A stretch of DNA of 64,000 nt from a virus (taxonomy: Duplodnaviria; Heunggongvirae; Uroviricota; Caudoviricetes): the IMG/VR virus record IMGVR_UViG_3300032030_000019; one strand, written 5' to 3'. The notes under the pieces are model-generated. The model worked only from the letters and a program-made list of their open reading frames with translations, did not search any database and had not been told where the DNA came from. Shown here one piece after another: positions 1-16,527 of this stretch. How positions within the stretch are numbered: position 1 is the first letter of the stretch; each line of letters begins with the position of its first letter. The position numbers were made by a program, and so were the translations under genes.

Positions 1-43
1 GAATGGTCATACATAGGCGGAATAGGGCAATCTTTACATCGCA

Positions 44-958
44 TTAGTTCCCCTGTATACTACCTGACTGAACAGGAATCGGCCCATAATTGTTTGTCGG
101 AACATATTTACCGTCCCACTTACTTATACGAGCTATCTCCTCTTCATGCTTCCACTCAGCCTTTTTCATCTCGGCTGCCTTTGCGAGCTGCTGTGCCATA
201 TAGAGATCCGCATCCGCCTTAACCTTTACTGCTTCTGCCTCCAGCTTCTTTGCCTCGAGGTCTGCTAATGCGTTCAACTTTTTAGCTTCCAAGTCAGCCT
301 TAGCAAGTGCCACTTTCTTTTGCGACTCGGTCTCTACGATCTTCAAATCCTGCTCTGCCTTCTTTGCTTCCTGAGCTGATTTCATTGTAGACTGTATTGA
401 CCTATCGAACTCCTCACTCCAGTCATAATTCGATACCGATACCTTTATAATAGATACAGGCATATTTAATTCGCTCATAATCTTTGCAAATTCGGCCTGT
501 ACTTCCGACGTAATTTTATCCTGGTTCGCAGTTACGTCGTATATACTGTATTTACCTATGACCGTTTTAATTGCAGGACTTAAGTTACGTTTAAACGTTT
601 CCTCAATGATACTATCACCAAAGTCAGTCGCAATTAACATAATACCACTTTCTTCATACCTATACGTGATATTAGCCTCAAGTCCGATTGATTGCATATC
701 CTTTGTTACAGCGGCATCACTTCCGAACGTGAATTTGATAGTTGAGTTCTTTGGTGCAATGCTATACGTTTTAATGTTACTCAAGAACGGCGTATGTAAT
801 TTCACGCCGGGCTGAATTACGTCTCCGTTCACACGTCCAAGAAAGTACTCTACGCCACGCTCACGTTGTTGAATAATTGAACATGAGTTAAAACCCAATA
901 TAATTACCAACAATATTATACCTGCTACTACAAATAAACCAATGTGTTTTTCTTCCAT
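44..958 (-). CDS. SPFH/band-7 (prohibitin/HflC-like) membrane-anchored protein
   Basis: N-terminal TM helix (LFVVAGIILLVIILGF), SPFH-like core, long Ala/Lys/Glu coiled-coil C-terminus (ADLEAKKL repeats). Confidence 0.6.
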   Translation of the reverse strand: MEEKHIGLFVVAGIILLVIILGFNSCSIIQQRERGVEYFLGRVNGDVIQPGVKLHTPFLSNIKTYSIAPKNSTIKFTFGSDAAVTKDMQSIGLEANITYRYEESGIMLIATDFGDSIIEETFKRNLSPAIKTVIGKYSIYDVTANQDKITSEVQAEFAKIMSELNMPVSIIKVSVSNYDWSEEFDRSIQSTMKSAQEAKKAEQDLKIVETESQKKVALAKADLEAKKLNALADLEAKKLEAEAVKVKADADLYMAQQLAKAAEMKKAEWKHEEEIARISKWDGKYVPTNNYGPIPVQSGSIQGN

Positions 959-1000
959 GTCTATCTCCTATTTTTTTGTTTTTTTTTACTTACATCCAAA

Positions 1001-1237
1001 TTAGTTCCATAAATCTTCCGACTCCCAACCCTGATGTAAGTGCATTCCTAACAACGTTTGAAACGTAAACCAAAGTGAGGCGTTACGTGGACCCCCATTT
1101 AACGTTTCACCAACAAAACATAAATTTTCCTGATGGGGCATACAATACAGACATTTAACCCGATATCTAGTCATATGTGATGTCAATACATCTATCGTGC
1201 ATGTATCCCCAACGTTTACATCATACTTTATCCCCAT
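1001..1237 (-). CDS. hypothetical protein (78 aa)
   Basis: minus-strand ORF; start ATGGGGATAA overlaps upstream stop by 10 nt. Confidence 0.4.
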   Translation of the reverse strand: MGIKYDVNVGDTCTIDVLTSHMTRYRVKCLYCMPHQENLCFVGETLNGGPRNASLWFTFQTLLGMHLHQGWESEDLWN

Positions 1238-1539
1238 ACGTCTGAATCACCAATGTTGTTCCACACGTAGGTCTGAAGTTTGGTGAGATTAGTATGCATG
1301 TTTTCAGCTAAATCCCAGTTCGTACCTTCGCACAAAACGACTTGAGAGTCATCATCTACATAATTATATAGTGCCTTAAACTCCCACTCATCTATTACGG
1401 CGAACCTATGTGGACTTTGTGCTAACTTTACTTGGATAATTCTACGTGTATCCCCTATACATAAAGTCCTATTTTTGCTCATTGTATTATTCCGCATTGA
1501 CGTAACGTGAAGAAGAGAACTACAATGCCAAATATACAA
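1228..1539 (-). CDS. hypothetical protein, 'D-x-D-x-W-G' tail family
   Basis: C-terminal ...GDSDVWG shared with 4905..5189 and 1656..1889; true start probably the internal Met at about 1482 (MSKNRTL) coupled by ATGA to a small upstream ORF. Confidence 0.4.
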   Translation of the reverse strand: MYIWHCSSLLHVTSMRNNTMSKNRTLCIGDTRRIIQVKLAQSPHRFAVIDEWEFKALYNYVDDDSQVVLCEGTNWDLAENMHTNLTKLQTYVWNNIGDSDVWG

Positions 1540-1628
1540 CCAGCCAAAATAAGTCTAGCTATATCAGCGGTCCCATCTTTCTCACTATCACTTTCAGGAA
1601 ATAATTCGATTATATACTTTCGTCCCAT
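1480..1628 (-). CDS. small membrane peptide (49 aa, below the ORF-track cutoff)
   Basis: manual translation: MGRKYIIELFPESDSEKDGTADIARLILAGCIFGIVVLFFTLRQCGIIQ; one TM helix; stop overlaps the next ATG (ATGA). Confidence 0.25.
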
Positions 1629-1655
1629 ACACGCCTCCAACGTTTACATCATAAT

Positions 1656-1889
1656 CTAATCCCATATATCCCTGTCATAGCTGAATTGCCCCCAACGGTA
1701 GGTATTAAGTTTGGACTCGTCACTATAGGCGTTACCACTTAAATCCCACGAGGCGGGTTCACACCAAGTCACAAGACCAAATGTATATTCATATTGAACT
1801 AAAGCCTTGAGTTCCCAGAAATTCTCTACTACAGGTGCGACGTTGTGTTTTACTCCACGTATTATCTGAATATCACCAATGTCCATCAA
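1656..1889 (-). CDS. hypothetical protein (77 aa)
   Basis: ORF in the one-strand gene chain; C-terminal ...YDRDIWD resembles the D-x-W tail family. Confidence 0.4.
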   Translation of the reverse strand: MMDIGDIQIIRGVKHNVAPVVENFWELKALVQYEYTFGLVTWCEPASWDLSGNAYSDESKLNTYRWGQFSYDRDIWD

Positions 1890-2431
1890 ATTATTTTACA
1901 TTGGCACGAACGCATAACCTCAAGTGCAGCCTCATGTTTTTCCTTCGTTAGCCCAGCACACGCATCGGCCACGATAGTTACGTCCACACCTTCGATGGCT
2001 TTTATGGCCAACGCATTGGAAACGACGCAAATGTCAGTGCACGTACCAACCATCGTAACTGTTGAATGCGGCTCAATGAATGCACCCCACTTATCATATC
2101 CGAAGTGGGATTTATTGAGAATTGTATCATCTAACATAGGTGCCAACTCTTTTGTAATCTCCCAACCTTTAGTCTGATAGAGACAATGCGGCACAGGAAG
2201 ATACGTACCCTCTAACGTATTCAAATAATCTTCCTTGTGCGTGTCACGTGTGTAAATAATGTGATCACCACGTTTACGCGCCTCGCTTAACAACGTTTTA
2301 ATTTTGGGGATAATCTTCACTGCGTCCTCATTTGCGAGTGCCCCCGTTGTAAAATCGTTCTGCATATCAATAACCACAAAATATGCAGACGGTGTGTTTT
2401 CCTTTTCACTGCTTACTTTTTTTGTAAACAT
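1886..2431 (-). CDS. pncA: nicotinamidase / isochorismatase-family hydrolase (PncA-like)
   Basis: VVIDMQNDF (D-x-Q-N-D-F), DTH, catalytic-Cys motif VGTCTDICV; start set at the internal Met (MFTKK) with GAAGGAG SD right after the nadD stop. Confidence 0.75.
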   Translation of the reverse strand: MFTKKVSSEKENTPSAYFVVIDMQNDFTTGALANEDAVKIIPKIKTLLSEARKRGDHIIYTRDTHKEDYLNTLEGTYLPVPHCLYQTKGWEITKELAPMLDDTILNKSHFGYDKWGAFIEPHSTVTMVGTCTDICVVSNALAIKAIEGVDVTIVADACAGLTKEKHEAALEVMRSCQCKII

Positions 2432-2432
2432 A

Positions 2433-3053
2433 TTAGGCTCCTTCTTCCCTAAGATTTTTCGCATAAATTTTCACTAACTTCACACTCGATACATCAATCA
2501 AGTGCTGTAGCGATTTCCTCACTTCCGTTGCGCTTCCATCGCCGACGTATGCTACGTGTTCAACGTTTGTGCGTATGTTAATATTCTCAGACGTATACCC
2601 TGGACGATCCACTACAAGAATATCAGACTCACGTAGAATAACTTCATGTTTACGCCATAAGTGTAACATCTCGAAAGAGTCACCACCTATAACTGTTGTA
2701 AACGTATATTCGTTGCCCCATTTTTTCTTAACATCAAGTAACGTGTCAGCGAATCCACGTGTCGTATCCCTCAAATACGCAATTTCCATATCATCCACAA
2801 CTACGTTGCCCCAATTATCCGTAGCCTCACGTAACATAGCAACACGTTCAATGAAGTCAAAATTATATTCGTCTTCATCCTGTTTTTTACGATGCCATGT
2901 TACTGTAGTCGGAATGACCACTACCTGATCAAACCGATCCTTAAGCATCTCAATTATGCCTATATGTGTGGATGTGACAGGGTTAAATGTCCCACCATAT
3001 ATTGCTATTTTCATTCTAGTCTCCTGTTTACCATAATTTCTCCTGTTTACCAT
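2433..3053 (-). CDS. nadD: nicotinate/nicotinamide mononucleotide adenylyltransferase (NadD/NMNAT family)
   Basis: GGTFNPVTSTH (GGTFxPxHxGH-like), VIGGDSFEMLHLW...VVDRPGY, GSATEVRKSL match the NadD signature blocks; an alternative start is the Met of MKIAIYGG at 3014. Confidence 0.8.
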   Translation of the reverse strand: MVNRRNYGKQETRMKIAIYGGTFNPVTSTHIGIIEMLKDRFDQVVVIPTTVTWHRKKQDEDEYNFDFIERVAMLREATDNWGNVVVDDMEIAYLRDTTRGFADTLLDVKKKWGNEYTFTTVIGGDSFEMLHLWRKHEVILRESDILVVDRPGYTSENINIRTNVEHVAYVGDGSATEVRKSLQHLIDVSSVKLVKIYAKNLREEGA

Positions 3054-3412
3054 GATTCGACTCCAAAACCTATTCCCGGGTTGTAATATCCGTAATTCTT
3101 TTGGACCCCATATAATTCTATAAATATACCCAAATGTTCTGAAATCAAGTGACCGTCACACAGGTTCAACACAACCTCGTCCCGTGCTTCCCCTAAAAAT
3201 TGTCTACTATCATCATAGACCACAATACTAGCAAACAAATAGGTACCGACTTCTATTTTTTTCTTCATGTATTTACGCCCATGTATCCGTTTGCACCTTA
3301 AATGCACGATACGTTTTTGATGGATGTACCATGTCCGTACGTACGTGATAACTTTCATGTGGAAACGACCATTGATTACTACAGTCAGGGAAACGTAACA
3401 GGCCAAATTCAC
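3047..3412 (-). CDS. small protein, NPG-x-x-F...E-x-W tail family
   Basis: C-terminal YYNPGIGFGVESW; 7-nt stop/start overlap (ATGGTAA) with nadD. Confidence 0.5.
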   Translation of the reverse strand: MNLACYVSLTVVINGRFHMKVITYVRTWYIHQKRIVHLRCKRIHGRKYMKKKIEVGTYLFASIVVYDDSRQFLGEARDEVVLNLCDGHLISEHLGIFIELYGVQKNYGYYNPGIGFGVESW

Positions 3413-3537
3413 CGATTATGTGTCCACAAAGTTCTGTATATCTATTCCATGAACGAAATAAGCATAGTAATGTAAAGTCAACCTTACTTCCATTGCATAA
3501 AATCTTACGTTGGTAATAATCACCTACGTCTTTTGGT

Positions 3538-4449
3538 TTACGTCCCACTTTCAAACTCCAACGTTACACCACAATGAGGACATGTATTCTGTTCTCCTGT
3601 AAACTTTCCACCACATTCAGGACATTCGTACTCTTCCTCCTCATCCTGTACCTCAATCATATCGCACAAGTATTCATACGTATTCGCCGACATATGTTCT
3701 TTACCCTTGCCATACGTAACCAAGTCGGCAAGATCGTCAGAAGAAAACAGGCGCGCACGTACAAGATCTGAGATGATGTGTATAGGAAATTCCTGATGAT
3801 ATATAAAATCATCCGCGAGTGCTTGTACACTGATCTTATAATCCAAGAGCTCCATAGCTAATCTTAGATTAACCCTATTTCGTCCTAACGTAATCCCCAT
3901 CATATCATTAGGTACGTGAACCAATGCATGACGTCTCCACTCATCTAGATCGACTCTCATTGGTAATGTTAAATTAAGTGCATCAAGTATAAGTTTTTCC
4001 TGTCTCTCATTACCTGTAATCTGAATAACATCCATCGCACGATCATGCAGTACTTCACACAGATGTTCTTTATTAGCACCCCACTTTCCAATGAACGCAC
4101 CCATGTCACCCATAACACTGATCTTTGATCGTTCTCCGGGAACACGTACGGCTTTATATACGGTTACGTCACCATTACGTACGCCATCAATATCTTGCGT
4201 TAGTTTCAACAGATAATCAACGTTTCTGTCTAAGCTCAACGTATATCCTGTTGGCGTACGTTGAATACCTGTTACAAGTACATCTATGCAACTTCCGGTA
4301 TCACGTTCACTGATATACGGGACGTGAGCTTTCGGAAGTAATCCATCGATCTTTTGGTGATGAAACAAGATTAACCACTTGTTATTAACGTCTTGTGCGA
4401 TCTCCCCCGTTAATACGTCGCCTACGTGTTTTTCCAAACTACTTTTCAT
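3538..4449 (-). CDS. NusA-like RNA-binding protein (S1 + KH + C-terminal Zn ribbon), paralog 1
   Basis: S1-like N-terminus (VGDVLTGEI...GLLPKAHVP...TLSL), KH GxxG motif (AFIGKWGANK...MDVIQITGNE), CPECGG...CPHCG zinc ribbon. Confidence 0.5.
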   Translation of the reverse strand: MKSSLEKHVGDVLTGEIAQDVNNKWLILFHHQKIDGLLPKAHVPYISERDTGSCIDVLVTGIQRTPTGYTLSLDRNVDYLLKLTQDIDGVRNGDVTVYKAVRVPGERSKISVMGDMGAFIGKWGANKEHLCEVLHDRAMDVIQITGNERQEKLILDALNLTLPMRVDLDEWRRHALVHVPNDMMGITLGRNRVNLRLAMELLDYKISVQALADDFIYHQEFPIHIISDLVRARLFSSDDLADLVTYGKGKEHMSANTYEYLCDMIEVQDEEEEYECPECGGKFTGEQNTCPHCGVTLEFESGT

Positions 4450-4479
4450 AACGTTATATCCCTCCCACGTTATAATAAA

Positions 4480-4914
4480 TTACAAGCATATAGACATATT
4501 GGTCATAGCGGGTTCATACTCATAATTTATGTTTCTATAGATATTTACTTGACACCATCCTATACATCCAAACTCGTCATCCTCGGTATCATCCCACTCT
4601 TCACCTATACGCAAAAAGTGGACTCCATAATCCTCGTTGTCTAAATCCCGCACCTTGTGCATATAGTTCGTGAGAAATTGCGAATAGAGCATGCAAGAAG
4701 GGTCCCATCTTACACAATCGAAACATAAACATATATGTGCAACATCTTCGGGTCTTGATACACCGCACTTTGTTATGTACCCGCTTTGTATAATTGACTC
4801 TATAGCCTGAGGATCAGTAGCTTTTGTTTTTCTCATTTCATCCAAAAGCAACTCATATGCCTTTGGGGTCATTTCTATTACTATATCATGAGTGTAGCCC
4901 ATAATCACCCCCAC
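4480..4914 (-). CDS. hypothetical protein (144 aa)
   Basis: minus-strand ORF; start overlaps upstream stop by 10 nt. Confidence 0.4.
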   Translation of the reverse strand: MGVIMGYTHDIVIEMTPKAYELLLDEMRKTKATDPQAIESIIQSGYITKCGVSRPEDVAHICLCFDCVRWDPSCMLYSQFLTNYMHKVRDLDNEDYGVHFLRIGEEWDDTEDDEFGCIGWCQVNIYRNINYEYEPAMTNMSICL

Positions 4915-5189
4915 ATGTCAGCATCATCAGTATTAAATCTAACTATATTATCGATATATCCTTGCTTATCCAGTCCCGTATGTACAAAGCATTCTCCGTC
5001 ATGATTTACCCTGCCTATTTCAGATATACAATACCAATAACCAGATTGATATAGAATAGTAGCAGGTAAAGTCGTATTATTCCATGCATGTACATACGTT
5101 ACCTTTCCTCCTACATCACTCTCATTATAACTCATACGTGTGTCCTTACACTTAACACACAACATATTTCGAATACGAACAGACCCCAC
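4905..5189 (-). CDS. hypothetical protein, 'D-x-D-x-W-G' tail family
   Basis: C-terminal ...TDDADMWG, same coupling geometry as 1228..1539. Confidence 0.4.
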   Translation of the reverse strand: MGSVRIRNMLCVKCKDTRMSYNESDVGGKVTYVHAWNNTTLPATILYQSGYWYCISEIGRVNHDGECFVHTGLDKQGYIDNIVRFNTDDADMWG

Positions 5190-5596
5190 GTTACTAAGAT
5201 CTGTCCAATATGTAGAGCTTGATCAGCAATTAAGTTAAGAACACCAAGGTTCGCCTTCGCATGGTCTATACGCGCATGTAAGTCCATATTTAAAAAGAGT
5301 GTACCGAGATATGCTATCCAAACGTACCATTCGTATATATGAAAATAAGCCAACGTTACTACGAATATTGGCAAGAAAATAAAACACGCCCACTCAAATG
5401 CGTGTAAGTACAAACACATTATGAAGTCATTTTTATACGTGGCGTAATTGCATCCAAGTTCGTTACACTTACGTTCCCACCAACTTGATTGTTTGAGATC
5501 GCAAAATATACCTTGTAGATGGAAGTCTGATATAATATGCAGTAAAAGTGACGAAAAAAGTGTTAAACCAAATACAATGATATCAAGTTGTTCCAT
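5132..5596 (-). CDS. integral membrane protein (about 4 TM)
   Basis: several hydrophobic helices (IVFGLTLFSSLLLHII, ACFIFLPIFVVTLAYF, IAYLGTLFL). Confidence 0.45.
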   Translation of the reverse strand: MEQLDIIVFGLTLFSSLLLHIISDFHLQGIFCDLKQSSWWERKCNELGCNYATYKNDFIMCLYLHAFEWACFIFLPIFVVTLAYFHIYEWYVWIAYLGTLFLNMDLHARIDHAKANLGVLNLIADQALHIGQILVTWGLFVFEICCVLSVRTHV

Positions 5597-5598
5597 TA

Positions 5599-5934
5599 CT
5601 ACATCTCCTCCTCAATATCATCATAATCTTCCTCATTCTCGTCGTCCTCGTCATCCTCGTTGCTCTCATCTTCATCGTCACCATACTCACTGACGAAGCC
5701 TTTATCCCAATCATCAAATTCATCTTTGAACATCTCATAAAACCCGGCTGGACCGTATTCTATAAGATCGAAGTAGTATTCCGTGGCTTTCTTGGGGGCA
5801 TTACACAAATCAGGATCTTCCTTACACATCTGGCGTACTTCATCCCAATCGTCTTCAGGAAGTCCACACTCGAAGTCCATCTTTACCCATTCCTCAATAC
5901 GACGTTTTTGTTCGGGGGTTAGCTGTTTACTCAT
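5599..5934 (-). CDS. highly acidic small protein
   Basis: C-terminal DDEDESNEDDEDDENEEDYDDIEEE; start moved to an internal Met just after the upstream stop (the track ORF begins 5' at 6021 inside the previous gene). Confidence 0.4.
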   Translation of the reverse strand: MSKQLTPEQKRRIEEWVKMDFECGLPEDDWDEVRQMCKEDPDLCNAPKKATEYYFDLIEYGPAGFYEMFKDEFDDWDKGFVSEYGDDEDESNEDDEDDENEEDYDDIEEEM

Positions 5935-6358
5935 TGTCTTCATCCTCCTCATCATTTTCATTCGCTTCATACTCATCACTATACTCTTCATTTGCCTCTT
6001 CTCGCTCACTGAATACCTCATAAAACGCGTAAGGTGCCATACAGCAACGCGCTATCACATCCAGGGTTTCCCAGGCTCCATCTCTTACGTCTTGCAAGAA
6101 TCGTTCTGCATCGCAAAATTCCCCATATGCAAACGCAACTGTGGGTAAATCAGATAACACACAATCTCGCGCCTCTCCGCTATTACAGAAGTACGACCCT
6201 GTCATATTGCCTGTGATCTCATCACTGTTCATAACCTCTTCTTCTATTTGCTCCTTAGTCATGTGCAAGCATTTCTCTTCGTTATTATCGAGCCATTCCT
6301 CAACGTCCGCTCGTACAGCCTCATAGTAATAATCGCTGTCTTCTGAAGGTTCAAACAT
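5927..6358 (-). CDS. acidic protein (143 aa)
   Basis: Asp/Glu-rich termini (EYSDEYEANENDEEDEDNE); coupled to neighbours. Confidence 0.45.
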   Translation of the reverse strand: MFEPSEDSDYYYEAVRADVEEWLDNNEEKCLHMTKEQIEEEVMNSDEITGNMTGSYFCNSGEARDCVLSDLPTVAFAYGEFCDAERFLQDVRDGAWETLDVIARCCMAPYAFYEVFSEREEANEEYSDEYEANENDEEDEDNE

Positions 6359-6974
6359 CTTGCTCCTCCTGACCGTTCATTGCTTCCCATAATGACGCAC
6401 GTAAAAGCGAAAGTTGCGATAATGCGTGTGTGACGTTGTACTTACGTTCATCCGTTTCCTCAAATACGTCAGCAAACTCATCATATGTCATTTCTATAAC
6501 TTCAATATCCTCTGCCTCATCTAATTTTTGATCACCCGCTTTTTCACATCCTAACGCACAGTAGATATATACGTTATTAGTTTGTATAGCTGGATTAACA
6601 CTGTATTTTCCAACGAAATGCCAATTATTACTCGTATATCCTGTTTCTTCAAGTAATTCACGTTTAGCTGCATTAAGTGCGTCTTCACCTTCTTCGATTG
6701 TACCTGCTGGCAATTCGTACGTAACTTCATTCGATCCTATACGATGTTGTTTTACGAATAACACACGTCCATCCTTTGTTTTTGCGTATATATGTACCCA
6801 ATCACTCATTTCAAGTCCTACAAACGTACGTGTAAGTTGTTTTGACGGTAAGTACGCTCTAATCTCGATTGTGTTAAATATACGATTATGTCCCATTGTG
6901 TTTACATCTTTTATCTGCCAGACGTGATTTTCAAACCCTTCTTTGTTTTTTGTGTTTTTATTATATCCGAACAT
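6351..6974 (-). CDS. NUDIX hydrolase
   Basis: Nudix box GTIEEGEDALNAAKRELLEETG (G-x5-E-x7-REUXEEXGU). Confidence 0.8.
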   Translation of the reverse strand: MFGYNKNTKNKEGFENHVWQIKDVNTMGHNRIFNTIEIRAYLPSKQLTRTFVGLEMSDWVHIYAKTKDGRVLFVKQHRIGSNEVTYELPAGTIEEGEDALNAAKRELLEETGYTSNNWHFVGKYSVNPAIQTNNVYIYCALGCEKAGDQKLDEAEDIEVIEMTYDEFADVFEETDERKYNVTHALSQLSLLRASLWEAMNGQEEQDV

Positions 6975-7054
6975 TCTTACTCCTTACTTAACACCCATAA
7001 ACAAACTGCCCCGGCTAACACAAGCACGAGGCAGCGAATTAATATTTCTTCCAC

Positions 7055-7510
7055 TTAGAACTGTTGAGGTGGCATCTGGAATGACGATGCCGGTACCGCC
7101 TGTGGTGCTACAGGTTGTGCATTACCTGTAGATTCAGGGTTGAAGTACGGGTTTGCCTCAGGTGCATAATGGTCAGTCTGAGGTGCTGGTTGCTGATCAC
7201 CCTTTGCCCGACTCAAAAACTGAATGTTGTTTACAATTACCGTCAGTTTACTATGCTTTGCCCCTGTTTGATCTTCCCATCGATCCTGTCGTAAGCTACC
7301 TTGTACACATACCTGCTGACCTTTCTGACAGTACTGATTAATAAGATTTGCCGTACCCTCAAACGCTTTACAATCAATAAAACTCACGTCATTTTCTTTC
7401 ATACCATTTACTGCCAATGTGAACGTAACCCGTGGATGTCCTGTCTGTGACATTGCATAATCAGGGTTTGCTGTTAATCGTCCAATAAGTCCTAAATTGT
7501 TGTAATCCAT
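7055..7510 (-). CDS. ssb: single-stranded DNA-binding protein (OB-fold SSB)
   Basis: NLGLIGRLTANPDY...RVTFTLAVNG...KLTVIVNNIQFL matches the SSB OB-fold; Gln/Pro-rich tail ending ...PPQQF. Confidence 0.85.
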   Translation of the reverse strand: MDYNNLGLIGRLTANPDYAMSQTGHPRVTFTLAVNGMKENDVSFIDCKAFEGTANLINQYCQKGQQVCVQGSLRQDRWEDQTGAKHSKLTVIVNNIQFLSRAKGDQQPAPQTDHYAPEANPYFNPESTGNAQPVAPQAVPASSFQMPPQQF

Positions 7511-7512
7511 CT

Positions 7513-7896
7513 TTATCTCCTGGAAAAATTGTCTTTAAGGGTACGATGAAGCACCCACATAAAATGATTCATCTCCTCTTCGGTCATATTATTTAATGAT
7601 AAAGTCTCAAACCACTCAGGCTCTGCCTTGTCCATATGAGTAGTGCATAGTAGATTATCATTCTCATCAACCCACGCATCACAAAAGTATTTTCTATCTG
7701 GGATCCATTCGCGAGTCTGTAAATAATAATCATCTATTCTATCTACTAATATCCCATGATCATCATCCAATTTTATTTTACTGTGAGGCTCGTTTTTGAT
7801 ATATATCTTTATATATTGTATAGCCTCACTTCTTGATTGATGACAATTCAGGATATGTTTCCACAGCAAGGCTGCTAAATCTTCAGCGCTTACCAT
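7513..7896 (-). CDS. hypothetical protein (127 aa)
   Basis: ORF in the gene chain. Confidence 0.45.
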   Translation of the reverse strand: MVSAEDLAALLWKHILNCHQSRSEAIQYIKIYIKNEPHSKIKLDDDHGILVDRIDDYYLQTREWIPDRKYFCDAWVDENDNLLCTTHMDKAEPEWFETLSLNNMTEEEMNHFMWVLHRTLKDNFSRR

Positions 7897-8123
7897 GCGT
7901 CACCCTCATCCAAAGGGTTGAACCCCGTCTCAGTACGCTTTACCGCATTCTCTTTGCCACTCGGGAATTCATACGCCTCGAAAGTCTGATCCTTATCCTT
8001 ACCATGAGCTATTTCGAATTTTGCGCCCAAATCTACAGTTAATGCTTTCTGTTCTTCTTCTGTAACAACTGTACTCATTTTACACTCCTTAAACAAAGTT
8101 ATCGATTGACATTTGATACCCAC
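7890..8123 (-). CDS. hypothetical protein (77 aa)
   Basis: ORF; 7-nt overlap with the downstream gene; tail ...EGDAW. Confidence 0.4.
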   Translation of the reverse strand: MGIKCQSITLFKECKMSTVVTEEEQKALTVDLGAKFEIAHGKDKDQTFEAYEFPSGKENAVKRTETGFNPLDEGDAW

Positions 8124-8658
8124 GATATTTCTGATCGTCGGTTACATCTCTGACGCCCCATTCAGGTACCTTGAAATTCTTAGCAGCCTCTTCACTAGGA
8201 AATTCCTGTTCACCTGTTATGATTGTTTTTCCATTCGGGAATCGGCGTACAAGGACAACACCCTGATCATTCTCCATTTTGTACACCGTGTTATACGTAA
8301 TCCCTATTAATTGGTCCTTGTGTTCCTGTAAGTAGTGATCAAAGAAAACCTTCGAGACCGTATCAGTCATTTCAAGACGTTTAGTTCCACTTATAGTCTT
8401 CTTTACCAACTTCTTATACGTATGCTTAGGATCTTTCTTACGTATATACTTATCTACCATACGTACTATTTCTCCGCCCACGTTGAAGTAATAGTGTTCT
8501 ACGTAATGTGAAAGTGTGCCATGTTTTTCCACGTCAGCCAAATTTTTACACAAATACGTACGTTCAATTTCCACCTCCTGTCTTTTTACGTTTACGGGTT
8601 TAGAACCCTTATTCTCAAGAAACCTCAATTCTTGTTCTTCTAGATCCAACGCCCCCAT
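8089..8658 (-). CDS. hypothetical protein; possible CYTH/triphosphate-tunnel-like fold
   Basis: E-V-E-I-E-R (ExExK-like) motif near the N-terminus and a size of about 190 aa; weak. Confidence 0.35.
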   Translation of the reverse strand: MGALDLEEQELRFLENKGSKPVNVKRQEVEIERTYLCKNLADVEKHGTLSHYVEHYYFNVGGEIVRMVDKYIRKKDPKHTYKKLVKKTISGTKRLEMTDTVSKVFFDHYLQEHKDQLIGITYNTVYKMENDQGVVLVRRFPNGKTIITGEQEFPSEEAAKNFKVPEWGVRDVTDDQKYRGYQMSIDNFV

Positions 8659-8668
8659 TAAAACCTCC

Positions 8669-8932
8669 TTATAACAGTAGCTTTGCGGCTTTAGGGTTGA
8701 TAATTATTGTGCCCACGGTTAACGCCACTGATAACAATGAGCAAATTCCGCATATGAGTTGAACAACCGCATGCGAATCCATTTTTCTTTTCACCATACC
8801 CTCTTGTTGTGGCTGTACCTGAACGACTTCTTGTGCACGTACGGGTGGTTTCTCTATCAGACCCAAACGTATTTTTGTAGCTAAAATTCGTTCATCCAAC
8901 TCTTTTAATCTCTGACGTTCCGCTATTGTCAT
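8669..8932 (-). CDS. hypothetical protein with C-terminal TM helix
   Basis: VVQLICGICSLLSVALTVGTIII hydrophobic stretch. Confidence 0.4.
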   Translation of the reverse strand: MTIAERQRLKELDERILATKIRLGLIEKPPVRAQEVVQVQPQQEGMVKRKMDSHAVVQLICGICSLLSVALTVGTIIINPKAAKLLL

Positions 8933-9109
8933 GTAGTCTCCTATCTCTCACGTGTAAACTTAATTACCTTTCCATCCTTAAATACAAGTACGTCATCGCG
9001 AATGTAAGGTGGAAGTGGGCATGTACGTTTAGGCTTACGTGTGCTTAACCATAATGTAACACTGCCTAATAAGCACGTAACAATGCCCGTGATCCAACGT
9101 TTCCACATC

Positions 9110-9391
9110 TTAAAAATGTTCCCTCACGTCTTCCCCATCTATGAAATGTACGTTATCGCCATCAACCTCATACGTTGCGATTACGTGTTCTTTGGGTACG
9201 AACCGAGCTAACTCAGGGCTTTCCCATGTTTTATTCCATTCATCTTCCTCATATTGAAAACCCCATTTGTCACCAAAACTCTTAAACATTGCGTTACGTG
9301 TTTCAGTATACGTACCATATATTCGGACAGCGTTACCACCTAAACGTTGTCCACTTCCAAATGTAAATATGTATGCTTTACGTTCATTCAT
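9110..9391 (-). CDS. hypothetical protein (93 aa)
   Basis: ORF. Confidence 0.4.
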   Translation of the reverse strand: MNERKAYIFTFGSGQRLGGNAVRIYGTYTETRNAMFKSFGDKWGFQYEEDEWNKTWESPELARFVPKEHVIATYEVDGDNVHFIDGEDVREHF

Positions 9392-9393
9392 AA

Positions 9394-9876
9394 TTACGCC
9401 TCCTTAATGCGCATATTCTCAGGTGGTAACGTCGGCTCGGAAATTGTTGAACAGTAATAGTCCATATAATCACCTCCGTACGCACGTGCGAGCACATTTG
9501 ACCACCCACGTAGCGAATATTCAAGGCGATACGTATTGTTTATTATGGGACAACCGAATTCACCATGTTGATGATAATCAGGATCAAACTTAATGTTCGT
9601 TGCCTTCAAATAATCAACAAGTACGTTTTCACAACTATCCATGAACAAACTTATGTCGCCACCTTTGTACCTATCCCAGTCTGTAAATTGCGTATCACCC
9701 CAATGCGTAAAACCGGTGACTTTGTACAATGGATCGGTAGCCTCTGTAACCTTACCGGTTGTCACATTAAATCCACAAGCTATGAGTGCGTTTTTTACGG
9801 AATTAAGATGATTATTGACTTCTTCCTTTGTTAAGTCATCAGGTATTTCACATTCAAAGATAATGTTTACATTCAT
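9394..9876 (-). CDS. hypothetical protein (160 aa)
   Basis: ORF. Confidence 0.45.
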   Translation of the reverse strand: MNVNIIFECEIPDDLTKEEVNNHLNSVKNALIACGFNVTTGKVTEATDPLYKVTGFTHWGDTQFTDWDRYKGGDISLFMDSCENVLVDYLKATNIKFDPDYHQHGEFGCPIINNTYRLEYSLRGWSNVLARAYGGDYMDYYCSTISEPTLPPENMRIKEA

Positions 9877-10058
9877 TATGCATCCCTTTTAAGTCTGATT
9901 ATTGTCTTCTTATTTTTAGTTGTCTCTTGATCTGTGTCGGTGTGTAATTGTGGAATATTTTTTGCTACTTCTTTCATATGTTCCCATCCAACAAGAACGA
10001 ACCCTACACATATACACCCACAGACAACAGAGATAATCGCACATATAATACTAAACAT
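9876..10058 (-). CDS. small membrane protein (60 aa)
   Basis: N-terminal TM (IICAIISVVCGCICVGFVLVGW). Confidence 0.35.
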   Translation of the reverse strand: MFSIICAIISVVCGCICVGFVLVGWEHMKEVAKNIPQLHTDTDQETTKNKKTIIRLKRDA

Positions 10059-10075
10059 CTTTACCTCCTTGTGTA

Positions 10076-10312
10076 TTAGTTCTTATCCTCCCAATCATCA
10101 AATACGCCTTCTTCTGTGCAATCCTCTTCCACCTCGATTGAGTCAAGGAAAAGCTTATCACTAATATCTACATTTTCGTGTATTATTTTCACTCTTGGCA
10201 GCTCATTCACGACTGCACGTTTTAATTCATTCTCTGTTACACCGTAAGGCGTACGTATTGCTAATGTTACATTAAAAACAATACCACCCTCTTGAACTCT
10301 AGATACATTCAT
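10076..10312 (-). CDS. hypothetical protein (78 aa)
   Basis: ORF. Confidence 0.4.
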   Translation of the reverse strand: MNVSRVQEGGIVFNVTLAIRTPYGVTENELKRAVVNELPRVKIIHENVDISDKLFLDSIEVEEDCTEEGVFDDWEDKN

Positions 10313-10326
10313 TTTTCACTCCTTTA

Positions 10327-10578
10327 TCATACCCTATGAGAGAATTCTTTATTTAATTTTGACCCATGTGCTGCAAGCATTTGTGCAATTTCATTGCGAT
10401 TATAATAGAGATGGTCCTCATACATCTCCTGTAAAAACGCTTCTGTCTCGCCATCTTCTTCAAGAGTACAAAACAGTGAAGTCCCTACGTCTTCTAATAG
10501 ATCATCCCTATCCACAATAGTCGGATAATCATGATCAGCCAAGTATTCCTCAATGGCTGATGCTACGTACCCGTTCAT
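10327..10578 (-). CDS. hypothetical protein (83 aa)
   Basis: ORF; ATGA overlap with the upstream gene. Confidence 0.4.
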   Translation of the reverse strand: MNGYVASAIEEYLADHDYPTIVDRDDLLEDVGTSLFCTLEEDGETEAFLQEMYEDHLYYNRNEIAQMLAAHGSKLNKEFSHRV

Positions 10579-11123
10579 ACATCGCTCCTTTTAAAACCCT
10601 TTAGTTCCCCTTTCATCCACTTGCATGCCTGTTCACAGATATTATCAAAGTCCTCCATGTATCTACAGATACGCCGCCACCAAGCATCATCTGCGATTAA
10701 CGTACATGTGTCAATGTGATGGAATTTATCAGGATTATTACCCCACGTAGCATCAATTCCAACTTTGTAGACACGGGGTGGATATGCTGAATTTGTATTT
10801 GGAAACAATACAAGATAATGCAACAATTGATCCGTTGTATTTAAATAAGTTTGAAGTCCTAAACCCACCTCACCATCAGATGGCAAAAAGAATGCCCATA
10901 GCGTTTCAGGAACCAAATAATGAAACTTCCCTTTGCCATTAGACATAAATTGCTCACATCTTTTTAGCAGTTCTACCAACTCGAGCAATGTAGCGTTGTT
11001 TTCCTTAGTCCAGGCACCCCATCTCTCCTCGCGCTCCAACAATTTCTTTTGATACTCTTTTTCTTCGTTATCTTTTGCCTCTTCGTATTCTTTCAGCATC
11101 GCATCTAATTCTTCGTCTAACAT
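10575..11123 (-). CDS. hypothetical protein (182 aa)
   Basis: ORF. Confidence 0.45.
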   Translation of the reverse strand: MLDEELDAMLKEYEEAKDNEEKEYQKKLLEREERWGAWTKENNATLLELVELLKRCEQFMSNGKGKFHYLVPETLWAFFLPSDGEVGLGLQTYLNTTDQLLHYLVLFPNTNSAYPPRVYKVGIDATWGNNPDKFHHIDTCTLIADDAWWRRICRYMEDFDNICEQACKWMKGELKGFKRSDV

Positions 11124-11134
11124 TTGTATCCCCC

Positions 11135-11392
11135 TTAACCAAATACGTAATACGGGTCACCAATTCTCGTAGCTATTTTATATACAGTACCACCTTCTGT
11201 ATTATCCTTATTAGCCATTTCTTCGTCTTCATACAAATGGTGTTTTATATCAAAATTATCTGACCAATTTTCACCATCAAAGAATTCCCATGTTTCCGCA
11301 TCGAGGCTTGCGTGTTTGTATATACGTGCAATCACGTACATTGTTTTGTTAAACTCACAATCCTTAATGTAACCATCAAATCTCCCTGCCAT
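11135..11392 (-). CDS. hypothetical protein (85 aa)
   Basis: ORF. Confidence 0.4.
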   Translation of the reverse strand: MAGRFDGYIKDCEFNKTMYVIARIYKHASLDAETWEFFDGENWSDNFDIKHHLYEDEEMANKDNTEGGTVYKIATRIGDPYYVFG

Positions 11393-11393
11393 T

Positions 11394-11660
11394 TTAAATG
11401 CCTCCTACTTCCACCCAAATGCTTCTGCGCTTATCAAAAGCTCCAGCACATAATACGTCAACAAATTCATGACTTCGTAGCCACTTCCAATCTGTAGCTA
11501 ACAATGCTCTTCCATTAACTCTTTCCTCACCAATTACTGATCCATTTGCTACAACCATAGACCCAGCAAAAAGAGCTGACCATTCATCAACGACATAATC
11601 ACAACCAATGTCTTTTAGTATGAATAGTCTCTTTGTTACAGGGGTTCCTTTTCTTTGCAT
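11394..11660 (-). CDS. hypothetical protein (about 88 aa)
   Basis: likely start ATG at 11660 (MQRKGT) with AAGGAG 8 nt upstream and a TAATG overlap with the preceding gene. Confidence 0.45.
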   Translation of the reverse strand: MQRKGTPVTKRLFILKDIGCDYVVDEWSALFAGSMVVANGSVIGEERVNGRALLATDWKWLRSHEFVDVLCAGAFDKRRSIWVEVGGI

Positions 11661-11878
11661 TACCACGTCTCCTTTTTAAATGGTAGTCCGGGGTTTAAGT
11701 ACCCACATGTGGGAGCTCCTATACCAACTATCCAATCCAAAAACTCTGTGATAATTACATTACGATGGTAATGCAACGACTTACTACAAAAGGATTGATC
11801 CCCACGCCAAAAGAGGGTGTGCTCATTATACAATTCAGTCAGATAGTATGATACTCCAATTTCTGAACTTGTTACCAC
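11660..11878 (-). CDS. small protein, NPG tail family (YLNPGLPFKKETW)
   Basis: conserved C-terminal tail; its Lys-Glu codons (AAGGAG) form the SD of the next gene. Confidence 0.5.
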   Translation of the reverse strand: MVTSSEIGVSYYLTELYNEHTLFWRGDQSFCSKSLHYHRNVIITEFLDWIVGIGAPTCGYLNPGLPFKKETW

Positions 11879-12087
11879 TTATCCTCCTTGAACCGAAAAC
11901 CCGGATTTAGAAAGCCATAAGCATGCTCGTTAGTAGCATACCTATGCGAAAACTCACCTATATACTCACTACTTTCAAGCTCTAAGAAAAAAGGGTCATC
12001 ATAGTCTATAGGAATACTATCATTACCTATTATCAAATCAATAAATATTGCTTGTAGATGCCATCTTGTGCCCACTTCCATCACCAC
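11872..12087 (-). CDS. small protein, NPG tail family (FLNPGFRFKEDKW)
   Basis: same tail and the same 7-nt overlap geometry. Confidence 0.5.
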   Translation of the reverse strand: MVMEVGTRWHLQAIFIDLIIGNDSIPIDYDDPFFLELESSEYIGEFSHRYATNEHAYGFLNPGFRFKEDKW

Positions 12088-12314
12088 ACCTCCGAGTCAA
12101 AGCTAAAGCCCGGATTGTAATGTGAGCGTTGTAGATTCATATGAAAATCGAACGTTTCATTGAACTCCAGGATAAATGACGAGCGGTTTTGATAGAGTAA
12201 GACGTCAATGTAATTACAATAAATGTAATAACAACCAAAGACGCCCTCTCCATCCTCAGACATGCTACGGCACAGATAGGAGTTACCAATTACGTTAGCG
12301 ATCACGTTTGTCAT
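12081..12314 (-). CDS. small protein, NPG tail family (YNPGFSFDSEVW)
   Basis: same tail; GGAGGTG SD and a TGATG overlap with the next gene. Confidence 0.5.
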   Translation of the reverse strand: MTNVIANVIGNSYLCRSMSEDGEGVFGCYYIYCNYIDVLLYQNRSSFILEFNETFDFHMNLQRSHYNPGFSFDSEVW

Positions 12315-13422
12315 TATTGCAACGTGAGCACAACATTTGGCAATTTTCTTCCACAGTACGTCCGCCCTTTGACCATGGCACTACGTGATCACCTTGCATG
12401 TCCTCAAACGTAAACTCACCACCACATATAGCGCACTTATGCCCCTGACGTTCATACATACGTCTCTTCATTTGTTCAGGGAACGTACGTATGGATAAGT
12501 ACTTCTCATCGTGAGTTGTACGTTCAGACAATATGTACGGAATTATACCTGTTTGTTTAGTTACATCCTCATCCATAACCAACTTATTTATGGTTTCACG
12601 TAATTCATTTGTGTTATATACGTGGCCATGATATTTGTTATAGAGTGTGCCCCAATCCTGATTCTCCGTTAACTTTTTCGGTACGTCAGGGAACATACGT
12701 TTGGCCCACGATATAACCTCTTGAAAGTACAACCACAATTCGTTGGCATCCACGTCATGCTGATGTAGGGCCATGTACTGTTCCAACGTTATGCCGTCAC
12801 GTTCAGCTATCCACGTCAATGCCTTTTCCAAATATTCCTGACGTATGGAGTTCGCCTTTACATACCCGTCTGACATTTGTGCCGCAGCGCACCCACGTTT
12901 ACTGAAATAACGTTTGGCGTCTGAGATGAACGTTCCGGCATACGTAGCGTTTAACAATTCTTGGTTTGTTAATGGTACACCTGCAATGTTTATAATCTTG
13001 AACCATGCCAAACGTTCCTCTGTTGTACCCTCACATATGTATACTGTAACCTCGTAATCAAGTATACGTTGCTGCTCAGTTTCGGTAAGGTTACGCATGT
13101 ATTTTTCATGTCCGTCAATTTTAATAGGGTACATATTCTCCAAATACTGACCTATTGAGATCGTACGTTGCTGTCCATCAATAACCTCATATTCTGAGTC
13201 TGACACTTTTGACCAATACATCGTGTTCAATGGGAAACCATTGTAAACTGAATTAATGACAGCTCTACGTTGTTGATCGTTATACACAAACTCACGCTGA
13301 TACATGGGGCGTACAGTTAACTTATGATCAGCATTGTAATACGTGAATACGCCATCATCTTTAAGATCTATATACCCCTCACATAGATCTCGTACTTTAA
13401 TTTTTGCTTCTGTTATCTTCAT
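12295..13422 (-). CDS. DUF262 (ParB/GmrS-like, DGQQR motif) + C-terminal HNH endonuclease fusion
   Basis: YQREF...VIDGQQRTISIGQYL (DUF262 hallmark) and C-terminal HKCAICGGEF...GDHVVPWSKGG...NCQMLCSRCNNDK (HNH); 26-nt overlap with the upstream methyltransferase. Confidence 0.7.
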   Translation of the reverse strand: MKITEAKIKVRDLCEGYIDLKDDGVFTYYNADHKLTVRPMYQREFVYNDQQRRAVINSVYNGFPLNTMYWSKVSDSEYEVIDGQQRTISIGQYLENMYPIKIDGHEKYMRNLTETEQQRILDYEVTVYICEGTTEERLAWFKIINIAGVPLTNQELLNATYAGTFISDAKRYFSKRGCAAAQMSDGYVKANSIRQEYLEKALTWIAERDGITLEQYMALHQHDVDANELWLYFQEVISWAKRMFPDVPKKLTENQDWGTLYNKYHGHVYNTNELRETINKLVMDEDVTKQTGIIPYILSERTTHDEKYLSIRTFPEQMKRRMYERQGHKCAICGGEFTFEDMQGDHVVPWSKGGRTVEENCQMLCSRCNNDKRDR

Positions 13423-14347
13423 CTTGTGCTCTCCTTTTAATTAAGATTCTAAAATACGGACATTGTCCATTAATGCTTAGATCTTTGTCATTGTTACCTT
13501 TACGAAATTTAATAATTTCAAATTGTTCAGGATTGTACTTATCTACAAAGGTGACGGGGACTCCCATAACTCCGTAATAATCTTTAGGAATCAGAGCTAT
13601 ATCTCCGACTCGTTCCTTCTTTTTGTTTGTTTTCCCGATATCAATGGCATCATAATTATCATATTTAGGGAATTTCATAGGGTCATATGTTTCCCATAAG
13701 ATGAGGTCTTCATGACGCTTTTGTATATCTAAGTTTGTAAACCAACGACATAACCCCGAAACTTTCTTTGTAGTTCCACTTGGTGTATCAAATTCATTAG
13801 GACTAGTATAACCTAACCATACTCGATTATCCTTGATTAACGGAAATATCTCTTTATAAGTTATGCTATTTTTATTTCCAACAATCAAAAACTTTTTATT
13901 ATATTTCATCAATAATTCTATATAGTCACGAAAAAGACTAAATGGTGGGTTAGTCACAATGATGTCAGCTTCCTTTAACAACTCAACACATTCTTCGCTT
14001 CTAAAATCTCCATTACCACTTAGAAACGATTGTGTACCAATATCAATATCATTATCATTACCGCCTTCGTATTCGAGTTTATATGAAAACTTATCGCGTT
14101 CATAATGCGTAGATATGAGTTTTTTTAACCCTAACAACTGAAATTTAAGGTGGAAGTATTTCCAAAAAGCAGATGTTGTTGGGTCATCGCAATTACAGAA
14201 TACGATCTTATTTTTGAAATGTTTGTCATAATGGCACAGTTCGTTGGATACATCATCTAATTTTGTATAAAATTCATCATTCTTTTCTTTCTTTGCCTTA
14301 TGTAAATTCTTATTACTCATGTTTATTACCCCTCCTATACTCACCAT
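13397..14347 (-). CDS. N6-adenine DNA methyltransferase, EcoRI-methylase-like
   Basis: IVTNPPFSLF (motif IV NPPF), KNDEFYT, KIVFCNCDDP, YYGVMGVPVTF...NPEQFEI; from memory this resembles M.EcoRI-family enzymes. Confidence 0.65.
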   Translation of the reverse strand: MVSIGGVINMSNKNLHKAKKEKNDEFYTKLDDVSNELCHYDKHFKNKIVFCNCDDPTTSAFWKYFHLKFQLLGLKKLISTHYERDKFSYKLEYEGGNDNDIDIGTQSFLSGNGDFRSEECVELLKEADIIVTNPPFSLFRDYIELLMKYNKKFLIVGNKNSITYKEIFPLIKDNRVWLGYTSPNEFDTPSGTTKKVSGLCRWFTNLDIQKRHEDLILWETYDPMKFPKYDNYDAIDIGKTNKKKERVGDIALIPKDYYGVMGVPVTFVDKYNPEQFEIIKFRKGNNDKDLSINGQCPYFRILIKRRAQDEDNRSKN

Positions 14348-14631
14348 GTCTCCTCATTAAATCTCCTAGCAGGATTATACCAACCAAGCCCATGTTTTAA
14401 GATACGGGAATCTAAGTAGAACTCACTACAGTACCACACATCAAAATCCCCACCCGCAGCTAAAGCTTCTGTAATACAATACAAAAGCTTCATGGGGATG
14501 TGGGGTTTAAGTATATACCATGTATCGTGATGATTCCATGCACTATGTTTTAGTAGTGAAGTACCAGGTTGTAGGATCTCCATGTGATTAAACGTATCCC
14601 CGACGTCCGCCATGATGTTTGTCTTACGCAT
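14341..14631 (-). CDS. small protein, NPG tail family (WYNPARRFNEETW)
   Basis: conserved tail; 7-nt overlap with the methyltransferase start. Confidence 0.5.
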   Translation of the reverse strand: MRKTNIMADVGDTFNHMEILQPGTSLLKHSAWNHHDTWYILKPHIPMKLLYCITEALAAGGDFDVWYCSEFYLDSRILKHGLGWYNPARRFNEETW

Positions 14632-14634
14632 GCC

Positions 14635-14997
14635 TTACGTACTCAAAACGTCTTCATTCACGTTTGCAAAATCGTCTGTACCATATGGACTACGTAAAGT
14701 AAAGTTTTTTCCGTTATACGTTTTTGCAGGACGTTTAGGTATATCCACATATTGCCAACGTTCTGCCCCATCGAATGACTGACGTTTAAGATACCAATCA
14801 TCCCCTACGATTAAAATATCATCCACAATCTCCTGTATGCCGTACCCACTATCATAATCAAGTACTGACGCGACATCCTTAAACGCGTCAATATCAAGTT
14901 CAATCTCACGTGTTCCAACCCAGCGTACATCATTCCACGTTTTGTGATTACGCGACAGCACATGATTTGTCTCGGTTAAAAAATTTATCATCTTCAT
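14635..14997 (-). CDS. hypothetical protein (120 aa)
   Basis: ORF. Confidence 0.45.
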   Translation of the reverse strand: MKMINFLTETNHVLSRNHKTWNDVRWVGTREIELDIDAFKDVASVLDYDSGYGIQEIVDDILIVGDDWYLKRQSFDGAERWQYVDIPKRPAKTYNGKNFTLRSPYGTDDFANVNEDVLST

Positions 14998-15483: not shown

Positions 15484-15522
15484 ACGTTAGCGCCACGTAC
15501 GGCACTAACGTATATACACACG

Positions 15523-16509: not shown

Positions 16510-16527
16510 TTTTGAGCTCCTTATATT

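Follow-up and report, generated by a model that had tools for sequence, protein, structure and literature searches.

The locus examined here raises the question of why a phage-like element should carry two genes resembling nusA. It lies in a 64,000-nucleotide stretch (hereafter the window) of the IMG/VR virus record IMGVR_UViG_3300032030_000019; read as its reverse complement, the window matches one end of a ~132-kb contig. NusA is a universal and essential bacterial elongation factor, and phages exploit it via small adaptors, such as lambda N and Q. A preliminary description of the window, made from its letters alone, had proposed that two open reading frames (ORFs) 16.6 kb apart, here termed P1 and P2, encode paralogous NusA-like proteins, each with an S1 barrel, one KH domain and a zinc ribbon. 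Our analysis indicates that P1 and P2 are both homologous to bacterial NusA and arose by an ancient duplication, that they are not redundant and that they lack the NusA N-terminal domain (NTD).

The identity of P1 and P2 as NusA homologues is, in our assessment, close to certain. By BLASTP the two proteins align with each other at an E value of 1e-10 and 26 % identity (P1 152-298, P2 176-338). Against the PDB, phmmer matched P1 to T. maritima NusA (1hh2, E 6e-11), with P1 10-211 aligned to NusA 135-341 across S1, KH1 and KH2, and matched P2 over KH1-KH2 to the NusA proteins of M. tuberculosis and E. coli, with E values of 8e-6 to 2e-5, the best being M. tuberculosis 2asb (E 8e-6). Alignment by hhalign of a P2-clade profile to a profile of 16 bacterial NusAs gave a probability of 99.1 % (E 1.5e-18) and covered P2 4-301; because the alignment starts at residue 4, we read the P2 N-terminus as the S1 domain of a NusA into which a basic stretch has been inserted. 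An AlphaFold2 model of P1 had a predicted local distance difference test (pLDDT) score of 82.5, and its best 17 Foldseek matches in the PDB were all bacterial NusA (E 7.5e-17 to 6e-11). The TM-score of this model to the M. tuberculosis NusA S1-KH-KH-RNA complex 2atw was 0.73 (target-normalised), and its alignments to E. coli NusA ran for 280-293 columns, beyond KH2. The same 17 NusA structures ranked first for the P2 model (E 2.5e-12 to 7e-9). Chance would not produce similarity at this level. ORF coordinates, BLASTP, phmmer, hhalign and Foldseek thus agree on two paralogous NusA-like S1/KH/zinc-ribbon proteins, as had been proposed. The Pfam and PHROGs scans were uninformative, returning a sub-threshold zinc ribbon for P1, a marginal one for P2 and a weak KH_5 match on P2; with both libraries nearly silent, placement in the family needed phmmer against the PDB, profiles and structure.

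Other families with related folds were considered and rejected. The preliminary description had named Rrp4/Csl4 and PNPase, which combine S1 with a single KH domain next to an N-terminal domain or an RNase PH core, as structures to compare alongside NusA; NusA came first for both models, and the named alternatives were absent among Foldseek PDB matches at E <= 1e-3 for either model. Archaeal NusA, which consists of KH-KH only, was rejected because S1, an HhH domain and a ribbon are present and because archaeal structures were far weaker Foldseek matches (E ~1e-4, versus 1e-17 to 1e-11 for bacterial NusA).

Both proteins follow the order S1, KH1, KH2, HhH-like helical domain, acidic linker and C4 zinc ribbon (Table 1), so that each has two KH domains where one had been described. 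The proposed N-terminal S1 barrel held for P1, in which five strands were modelled confidently, and held in part for P2, in which it is supported by profile alignment but has a pLDDT below 50. The P2 segment ILGRKGTNLALIQKLVGYKIILDV, which had been likened to the GxxG region of NusA KH1, aligns by phmmer to NusA KH2 (E. coli AIGRNGQNVRLASQLSGWELN), and the P1 equivalent reads GRNR and not GxxG. NusA has a GxxG loop in both KH domains, and neither P1 nor P2 displays the two together. Loss of the KH2 motif is common to the whole P1 clade (P0002, P0003 and P0010) and loss of the KH1 motif to the whole P2 clade (P0009 and P0013); both loops are kept in the remoter short forms P0011, P0012, P0018 and P0032. 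The helical domain of P1 matched RuvA HhH structures at a probability of 0.99 (Foldseek). At the C-terminus both proteins carry CPxC...CPxCG, which bears out the paired CxxC ribbon noted earlier. The HhH-like domain between KH2 and the ribbon, the missing NTD and the Spirochaetota origin of the ribbon discussed below are features that the preliminary description did not name.

The ~135-aa NTD of NusA is missing from both proteins, which begin at S1 in sequence alignments and by hhalign. No separately encoded NTD was found: the neighbouring ORFs gave no NusA_N (PF08529) match by Pfam or hhalign, and a tblastn search of the whole window with eight NusA NTDs gave a best E value of 0.11. In NusA this domain contacts the flap tip of RNA polymerase, at the RNA exit channel, and pause enhancement requires nothing else of NusA, the domain being both necessary and sufficient for it. 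Because this RNA polymerase-binding domain is missing, P1 and P2 are not expected to act as canonical NusA. The rimP-nusA-infB context of bacterial nusA is also absent, the neighbours being small hypothetical genes, NAD-related genes and an AAA_5/DUF2201_N gene pair.

The closest cellular relatives were indicated by the zinc-ribbon tail. A large-database search with P1 returned its own small family first and then full-length Treponema NusA (~495 aa), which has the same ribbon and covers 97 % of P1, the alignment continuing to the C-terminus with the ribbon included. In a scan of GTDB species genomes, biased in that its patterns were derived from spirochaete sequences, 480 relatives were confirmed; the best 80 of the 480 were all Spirochaetota, most matching P1 to residue 299-300, and the top match was a ruminant-colon Spirochaetaceae metagenome-assembled genome. 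A pattern-free profile search identified 13 bacterial-length matches with a C-terminal CxxC...CxxC, including both named Treponema NusAs, and the nine of these 13 that were included in a neighbour-joining tree of a subset formed one clade. Nine newly found Zn-tailed NusAs and two earlier matches scored far above tail-less NusAs against Spirochaetota loci, and one newly named Zn-tailed NusA belongs to a Spirochaetaceae. The P1 tail is 52-68 % identical to that of the spirochaete-clade Zn-tailed NusAs and its other domains 15-34 %; the corresponding figures for P2 are 32-43 % and 11-29 %. As tail identity far exceeds that of the other domains, we take the tail to be a Spirochaetota-type inheritance and the most constrained part of these proteins, and not a phage addition. 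Judged from sequence, then, the zinc-ribbon tail is inherited from a Spirochaetota-type NusA, a statement that does not extend to exclusivity of such tails to Spirochaetota.

Comparison with known systems supported the assignment to the bacterial type and marked out the differences. Spirochaetota-type NusA, as in Treponema (NTD-S1-KH1-KH2-helical linker-HhH-acidic linker-Zn ribbon), has the same order from S1 to ribbon as P1 and P2 and has the ribbon motif EEYECPECG...CPxCGV.LEFE in common with them. Unlike it, P1 and P2 are without the NTD and the ~28-aa linker after KH2, have each lost one GxxG, are duplicated, are not found in a rimP-nusA-infB arrangement and have a core that is 15-34 % identical. 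NusA of E. coli, M. tuberculosis and T. maritima (5lm9, 6flq, 2asb/2atw and 1hh2) has the same S1-KH1-KH2 fold, and its AR1 (an HhH acidic repeat) resembles the helical domain after KH2, but P1 and P2 lack the NTD, and where AR1-AR2 would stand they have a single HhH-like domain and a zinc ribbon. Archaeal NusA and NusA2 (2cxc, 9f9u and 9fjl) are also naturally without the bacterial NTD and share the tandem KH core, yet they have no S1, HhH or ribbon, and P1 and P2 are clearly of bacterial type. A NusA encoded by a huge phage (LR756504.1) is likewise virus-borne, but its NTD is present and its tail has no ribbon; it appears as the single match in its record and resembles an entire NusA of cellular type. 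With regard to phage antitermination systems that make use of host NusA, namely lambda N/Q and gp39 of Thermus phage P23-45 (PMC3351154), the possible outcome, altered pausing or termination on phage transcripts, would be alike. The phage proteins of those systems are small and bind host NusA or RNA polymerase, whereas P1 and P2 are NusA-derived proteins encoded by the element itself, with no sequence relationship to them.

Short forms of this kind were found to be rare. A hidden Markov model (HMM) search with a profile of the short forms, exhaustive over 1.84 billion representative proteins, returned 3857 relatives, of which ordinary NusA made up the greater part. No more than six clusters reached E < 1e-30, all of 300-341 aa and NTD-less, followed by a few more short forms (P0018, P0032 and P0030), giving about ten clusters of short NTD-less forms in that database. 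Among viral structures in BFVD, none matched the model at E <= 1e-3 and only isolated S1 domains were seen. A tblastn search of 50,697 GenBank phage records produced nine weak matches only, two of which were inspected, and the sole viral relative found there was an unannotated full-length NusA of 423 aa with an NTD in LR756504.1, a 636-kb huge phage genome (L094 2566-3837). Because that record holds a full-length gene, there are at least two kinds of virus-borne NusA, of which one is complete and another NTD-less. Scans of IMG/VR with P1, P2 and an alignment found no relatives, a megablast search with the window region as query produced no match among GenBank phages, and the searched literature contained no description of a phage NTD-less NusA, of NusA-like phage proteins or of a spirochaete NusA zinc ribbon. 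The earlier statement that phage NusA-like factors are uncommon is therefore in keeping with BFVD, GenBank phages and the searched literature.

The pair was present on all three contigs long enough to tell, namely the window, L010 and L008. On the 123-kb ENA contig k141_2608640 (the L010 pair), P2-like P0013 lies 9 kb from P1-like P0002; on a Logan contig (the L008 pair), 1.7 kb separates P0011 from a 293-aa copy that is close to P0032. In all three diverged lineages, one paralogue also has just upstream of it a gene for a MoxR-like AAA_5 ATPase and, after that, one for a DUF2201_N or large partner, and this placement beside a NusA-like gene may reflect conserved module order or a functional link.

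Both genes appear to be maintained as functional sequences. Their ribosome-binding sites are plausible to good (GGGAGGG for P1 and AAGGAGG for P2), and orthologue ORFs are intact at 32-82 % identity. The comparison of P2 with the P0009 gene gave a dN/dS of 0.10, and P1-clade comparisons gave pN values of 0.10-0.27 against a pS of ~0.76, which is saturated. These substitution patterns indicate that selection on both genes is purifying. The paralogues also differ in charge, P1 being acidic (pI 5.0) and the S1 and KH2 domains of P2 basic (pI 9.7 each).

Such data bear on the possibility that P1 and P2 are artefacts or remnants, that is, either pieces of bacterial nusA on a contig that is chimeric or bacterial, or functionless pseudogenes in decay. 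Contamination does occur among records of this type: MT835665.1 (L095, 'Bacteriophage sp.') was rejected as a phage carrier of NusA as it contains a PNPase-rimP-nusA-infB region and is very likely bacterial contamination, and matches in Listeria and Staphylococcus 'phage' records look like host DNA. Nor was any structural phage gene seen in the inspected part of the element, which comprises the window and sampled flanks, about half of ~133 kb; PHROGs searches of eight genes past the window end found no structural hallmark. Against this, independent assemblies of ENA, JGI and Logan data recovered this locus, known from gut metagenomes, on contigs of 131.8, 133.0 and 134.0 kb (among them ENA k141_2614546 and JGI Ga0247609_10000077), the neighbours are phage-type replication and nucleotide genes with small unidirectional ORFs and not rimP/infB, the ORFs are intact in orthologues and under purifying selection, and the pairing recurs in three lineages. 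We regard an artefactual origin as largely refuted and very improbable. The label 'phage' is likewise well supported by the replication and nucleotide-metabolism genes and by the layout, short of proof from a hallmark gene.

Analysis of the P2 locus revealed that the gene is bracketed by terminator-like elements. A leader hairpin with a U9 run ends about 5 nucleotides before the ribosome-binding site and was more stable than all 200 shuffled sequences (-19.4 kcal/mol, z -4.15, 0/200 as stable), and a second hairpin with a U run lies 30 nucleotides past the stop codon (-19.2 kcal/mol, z -5.27). Only 10 elements this strong occur on the coding strand in 64 kb, none of them near P1. The P2 orthologues in L007 and L010 are bracketed in the same way, with homologous sequence in L007 and unrelated but co-positioned sequence in L010, so that P2 and these orthologues each form a unit of a single gene. 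Since P2 transcription must pass the leader terminator, P2 expression may depend on read-through. No enrichment of sigma-70-like promoters was found near P1 or P2. Separately, palindromes of the form GACGT-N(5-30)-ACGTC numbered 9 in the window against 1.25 expected, a count reached in 0/100 shuffles. Several of these palindromes are hairpin stems within terminator-like elements, and near-variants (GGACGTTA...TAACGTCC and CGACGTG...GCGTCG) occur in the hairpins flanking P2. They could represent a shared terminator family or a protein-binding motif.

What the two proteins do can be proposed from these features with graded confidence. The best overall explanation, that they are NTD-less NusA homologues acting as mimics, we consider evenly poised between right and wrong. 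How such mimics would alter termination is drawn from domain content and is put forward tentatively, as a possible but rather doubtful mechanism. Nascent or leader RNA would be the ligand of the S1-KH-KH core, and the strongly conserved tail would engage whatever partner the tail of host NusA engages; the pause- and hairpin-stabilising contact could not be delivered without an NTD. Competition with host NusA would then change pausing and intrinsic termination, leading either to read-through on element transcripts or to disturbance of host NusA-dependent processes and shut-off. The KH loop losses are complementary and the charges opposite, from which we infer paralogues with different RNA targets; P1 and P2 probably differ in the RNA elements that they recognise or in the stage at which they act. 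As first proposed, the two diverged copies may have specialised RNA-binding or antitermination roles. The leader terminator would permit feedback on P2, similar to the known autoregulation of bacterial nusA operons. A more elaborate two-protein system may also be imagined, in which a tail copied from the host's spirochaete-type NusA tethers the mimics to the elongation complex or to a NusA partner, the KH halves set different RNA targets, P2 gates itself via its leader terminator and termination is reprogrammed. Taken as a whole we think this version unlikely.

The missing NTD may also be read in another way, whereby P1 and P2 are polymerase-independent RNA binders. The NusA core would then have been co-opted for transcripts of the element as a chaperone, mRNA stabiliser, processing adaptor or translation factor, with the tail serving dimerisation or autoinhibition and termination unaffected. 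Several features fit: the domain that docks on RNA polymerase is absent, binding of single-stranded RNA is a generic property of S1 and KH domains, the weaker fold matches of both models include ribosomal S1/S3 and KH-CPSF proteins, the S1 and KH2 domains of P2 are basic and accompanied by a basic insertion, and BFVD shows that phages do carry S1-domain proteins. Yet the entire NusA-specific layout has been retained, including the HhH domain and the spirochaete-type tail; the tail is the part best conserved relative to cellular NusA, which is hard to explain if a NusA-specific partner is irrelevant; and P2 is embedded between terminators. We consider such a role somewhat unlikely, while giving it real weight.

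A further possibility is that the pair serves as cofactors of an RNA polymerase or N/Q-like antiterminator encoded by the element, providing NusA-like handling of RNA for a polymerase that host NusA cannot serve. Lambda N and Q do use NusA domains, as seen in structures among the fold matches (5lm7, 5ms0, 6gov and 7ubn), and relatives that have diverged still keep the pair. Neither the window nor the sampled flanks showed an RNA polymerase, sigma or N/Q-like gene; this inspection covered ~64 kb plus flanks of ~133 kb, about half of the element, so that such a partner is possible. The resemblance of the tail to a cellular NusA tail points instead to a host partner, and we judge the cofactor reading quite improbable.

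The proposal that P1 and P2 act as NusA mimics in transcription also has to be set against several observations that weigh on the other side. With about half of the element inspected, a phage RNA polymerase or an N/Q-like partner may be encoded elsewhere on it. Without an NTD, P1 and P2 may make no contact with RNA polymerase at all. BoxA-like sites were not enriched in the window (4 versus 6.65 expected), the consensus used being of E. coli type. The P2 model is weak, with a mean pLDDT of 59 and poor quality in the S1 region. In a neighbour-joining tree of the S1-KH-KH region, the short forms nested in the spirochaete clade in 0/100 bootstraps and were united weakly (59/100); long branches likely distort this tree, in which the branching point is not resolved. 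Finally, the high identity of the tail could stem from structural constraint, as zinc ligands and a short beta-ribbon would impose, or from recombination, and not from a shared partner.

The remaining genes of the element place the pair in a phage-like setting of coding on one strand and ~40 % GC (Table 1). All ORFs of at least 150 aa in window 1..64000 lie on the minus strand, the exceptions being two that overlap ORFs of that strand; GC skew is negative throughout (-0.11 to -0.25) and there are no tRNA genes. The element encodes a DnaB, a 5'-3' exonuclease, HNH endonucleases and many small unidirectional ORFs, and its MoxR-like AAA_5 ATPase is partnered by a DUF2201_N protein (PHROG 'HNH endonuclease'). 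Its 1374-aa polymerase had a single relative among the 50,697 GenBank phage records, a weak one at 27 % identity over 16 % of its length; on the basis of this one weak phage relative the element represents an essentially undescribed lineage. The HD-domain and dGTP_diPhyd_N genes may serve manipulation of dNTP pools or modified-base chemistry, and no PurZ-like gene was seen alongside them. A Cpn10/GroES homologue lies just past the window end (L096 8956-9243). The NAD-related set beside P1 resembles the NAD+ modules reported for gastrointestinal jumbo phages (PMC11662467), and a syntenic relative (L004 1813-2952) adds NUDIX and SSB genes. The GmrSD_N/HNH fusion and the methylase-like gene that it overlaps may form a pair of modification-dependent nuclease and methylase, and the two LRR_5 proteins could be involved in host-surface interaction and might be of use in assigning a host.

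Table 1. Positions of P1, P2, their domains and associated features (window coordinates unless another locus is named)
Feature	Position	Strand	Details
P1	3538..4449	minus	303 aa; NTD-less NusA homologue, S1-KH1-KH2-HhH-acidic linker-Zn ribbon
P1 S1	4225..4428	minus	aa 8-75; strands E12-19, 25-29, 34-37, 54-65, 68-74; aligned to NusA S1
P1 KH1	4012..4224	minus	aa 76-146; GxxG kept, G121-K-W-G124; Pfam KH_NusA_1st precomputed on orthologues
P1 KH2	3814..4011	minus	aa 147-212; GxxG degenerate, G189-R-N-R192; Pfam KH_NusA_2nd precomputed on orthologues
P1 HhH-like helical domain	3652..3813	minus	aa 213-266; helices 215-218, 223-231, 237-246, 255-264; pLDDT about 90
P1 C4 zinc ribbon	3550..3633	minus	aa 273-300; C276, C279, C290, C293; Pfam Zn_ribbon_3 E 8e-6, under curated cut-off; acidic linker before
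P2	21100..22125	minus	341 aa; NTD-less NusA homologue, more diverged of the two paralogues
P2 S1-like domain	21835..22113	minus	aa 5-97; ~30-aa basic insertion at about aa 39-72, with a gap there in hhalign to NusA S1; pLDDT < 50
P2 KH1	21610..21834	minus	aa 98-172; GxxG lost (T-S-A-I); Pfam KH_5 (NusA-like KH) E 0.0016 on aa 163-192
P2 KH2	21418..21609	minus	aa 173-236; GxxG kept, G213-R-K-G216; phmmer alignment to NusA KH2; Pfam KH_NusA_2nd precomputed
P2 HhH-like helical domain	21256..21417	minus	aa 237-290; helices 248-256, 262-270, 280-289; aligns with P1 helical domain
P2 C4 zinc ribbon	21109..21201	minus	aa 309-339; C312, C315, C330, C333; Pfam Zn_ribbon_LysW E 3e-6, 27.1 bits versus cut-off 27
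P2 leader terminator-like hairpin and U9 run	22143..22197	minus	ribosome-binding site AAGGAGG at 22132..22138
P2 downstream terminator-like hairpin and U run	21028..21070	minus	
Elements bracketing P2 orthologues	L007 3439-3535 and 4573-4690; L010 9916-10004 and 10961-11070		
GACGT palindromes (examples)	29079-29103, 32134-32156, 12447-12464, 30862-30894		
AAA_5 and partner gene pair	23740..26319	minus	in relatives, L010 5957-8756 and L008 7112-9917
1374-aa protein	39195..43319	minus	family-A DNA polymerase (PolA) domain only at ~990-1140
NrdD (anaerobic ribonucleotide reductase)	54621..58199	minus	1192 aa; Intein_splicing between two NRDD segments (precomputed Pfam); 64-aa NRDD fragment gene next
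HD-domain and dGTP_diPhyd_N (MazZ-like dGTP diphosphohydrolase N-terminal) proteins	59525..60145 and 61955..62479	minus	close together
Cytidylyltransferase-like (NMN/NaMN adenylyltransferase-like) gene	2433..3053	minus	NAD-related, adjoining P1
Isochorismatase/nicotinamidase-like gene	1886..2464	minus	NAD-related, adjoining P1
SPFH/Band_7 gene	44..958	minus	near P1
GmrSD_N + HNH fusion and EcoRI-methylase-like gene	12295..14347	minus	375 aa and 316 aa, overlapping
LRR_5 (BspA-like leucine-rich repeat) proteins	27867..29012 and 34105..35340	minus	two proteins; strong PHROG matches, phrog_18805 E 9e-67

In sum, an element that encodes its own NusA derivatives would represent a different strategy for controlling pausing and termination from that of the small adaptors. 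The pair amounts to a natural dissection of NusA, in which the core and tail are present without the NTD and one KH loop is disabled per copy, and it could serve to explore what the Spirochaetota zinc-ribbon tail and the RNA-binding core do alone. The likeness of the tail also leads to the prediction that a spirochaete is the host of this ~133-kb phage-like gut lineage, which is not otherwise placed. If the two-protein system set out above were true, P1 and P2 would constitute a new class of factors for phage antitermination or host shut-off, and the function of the zinc-ribbon tail of Spirochaetota NusA would be revealed.

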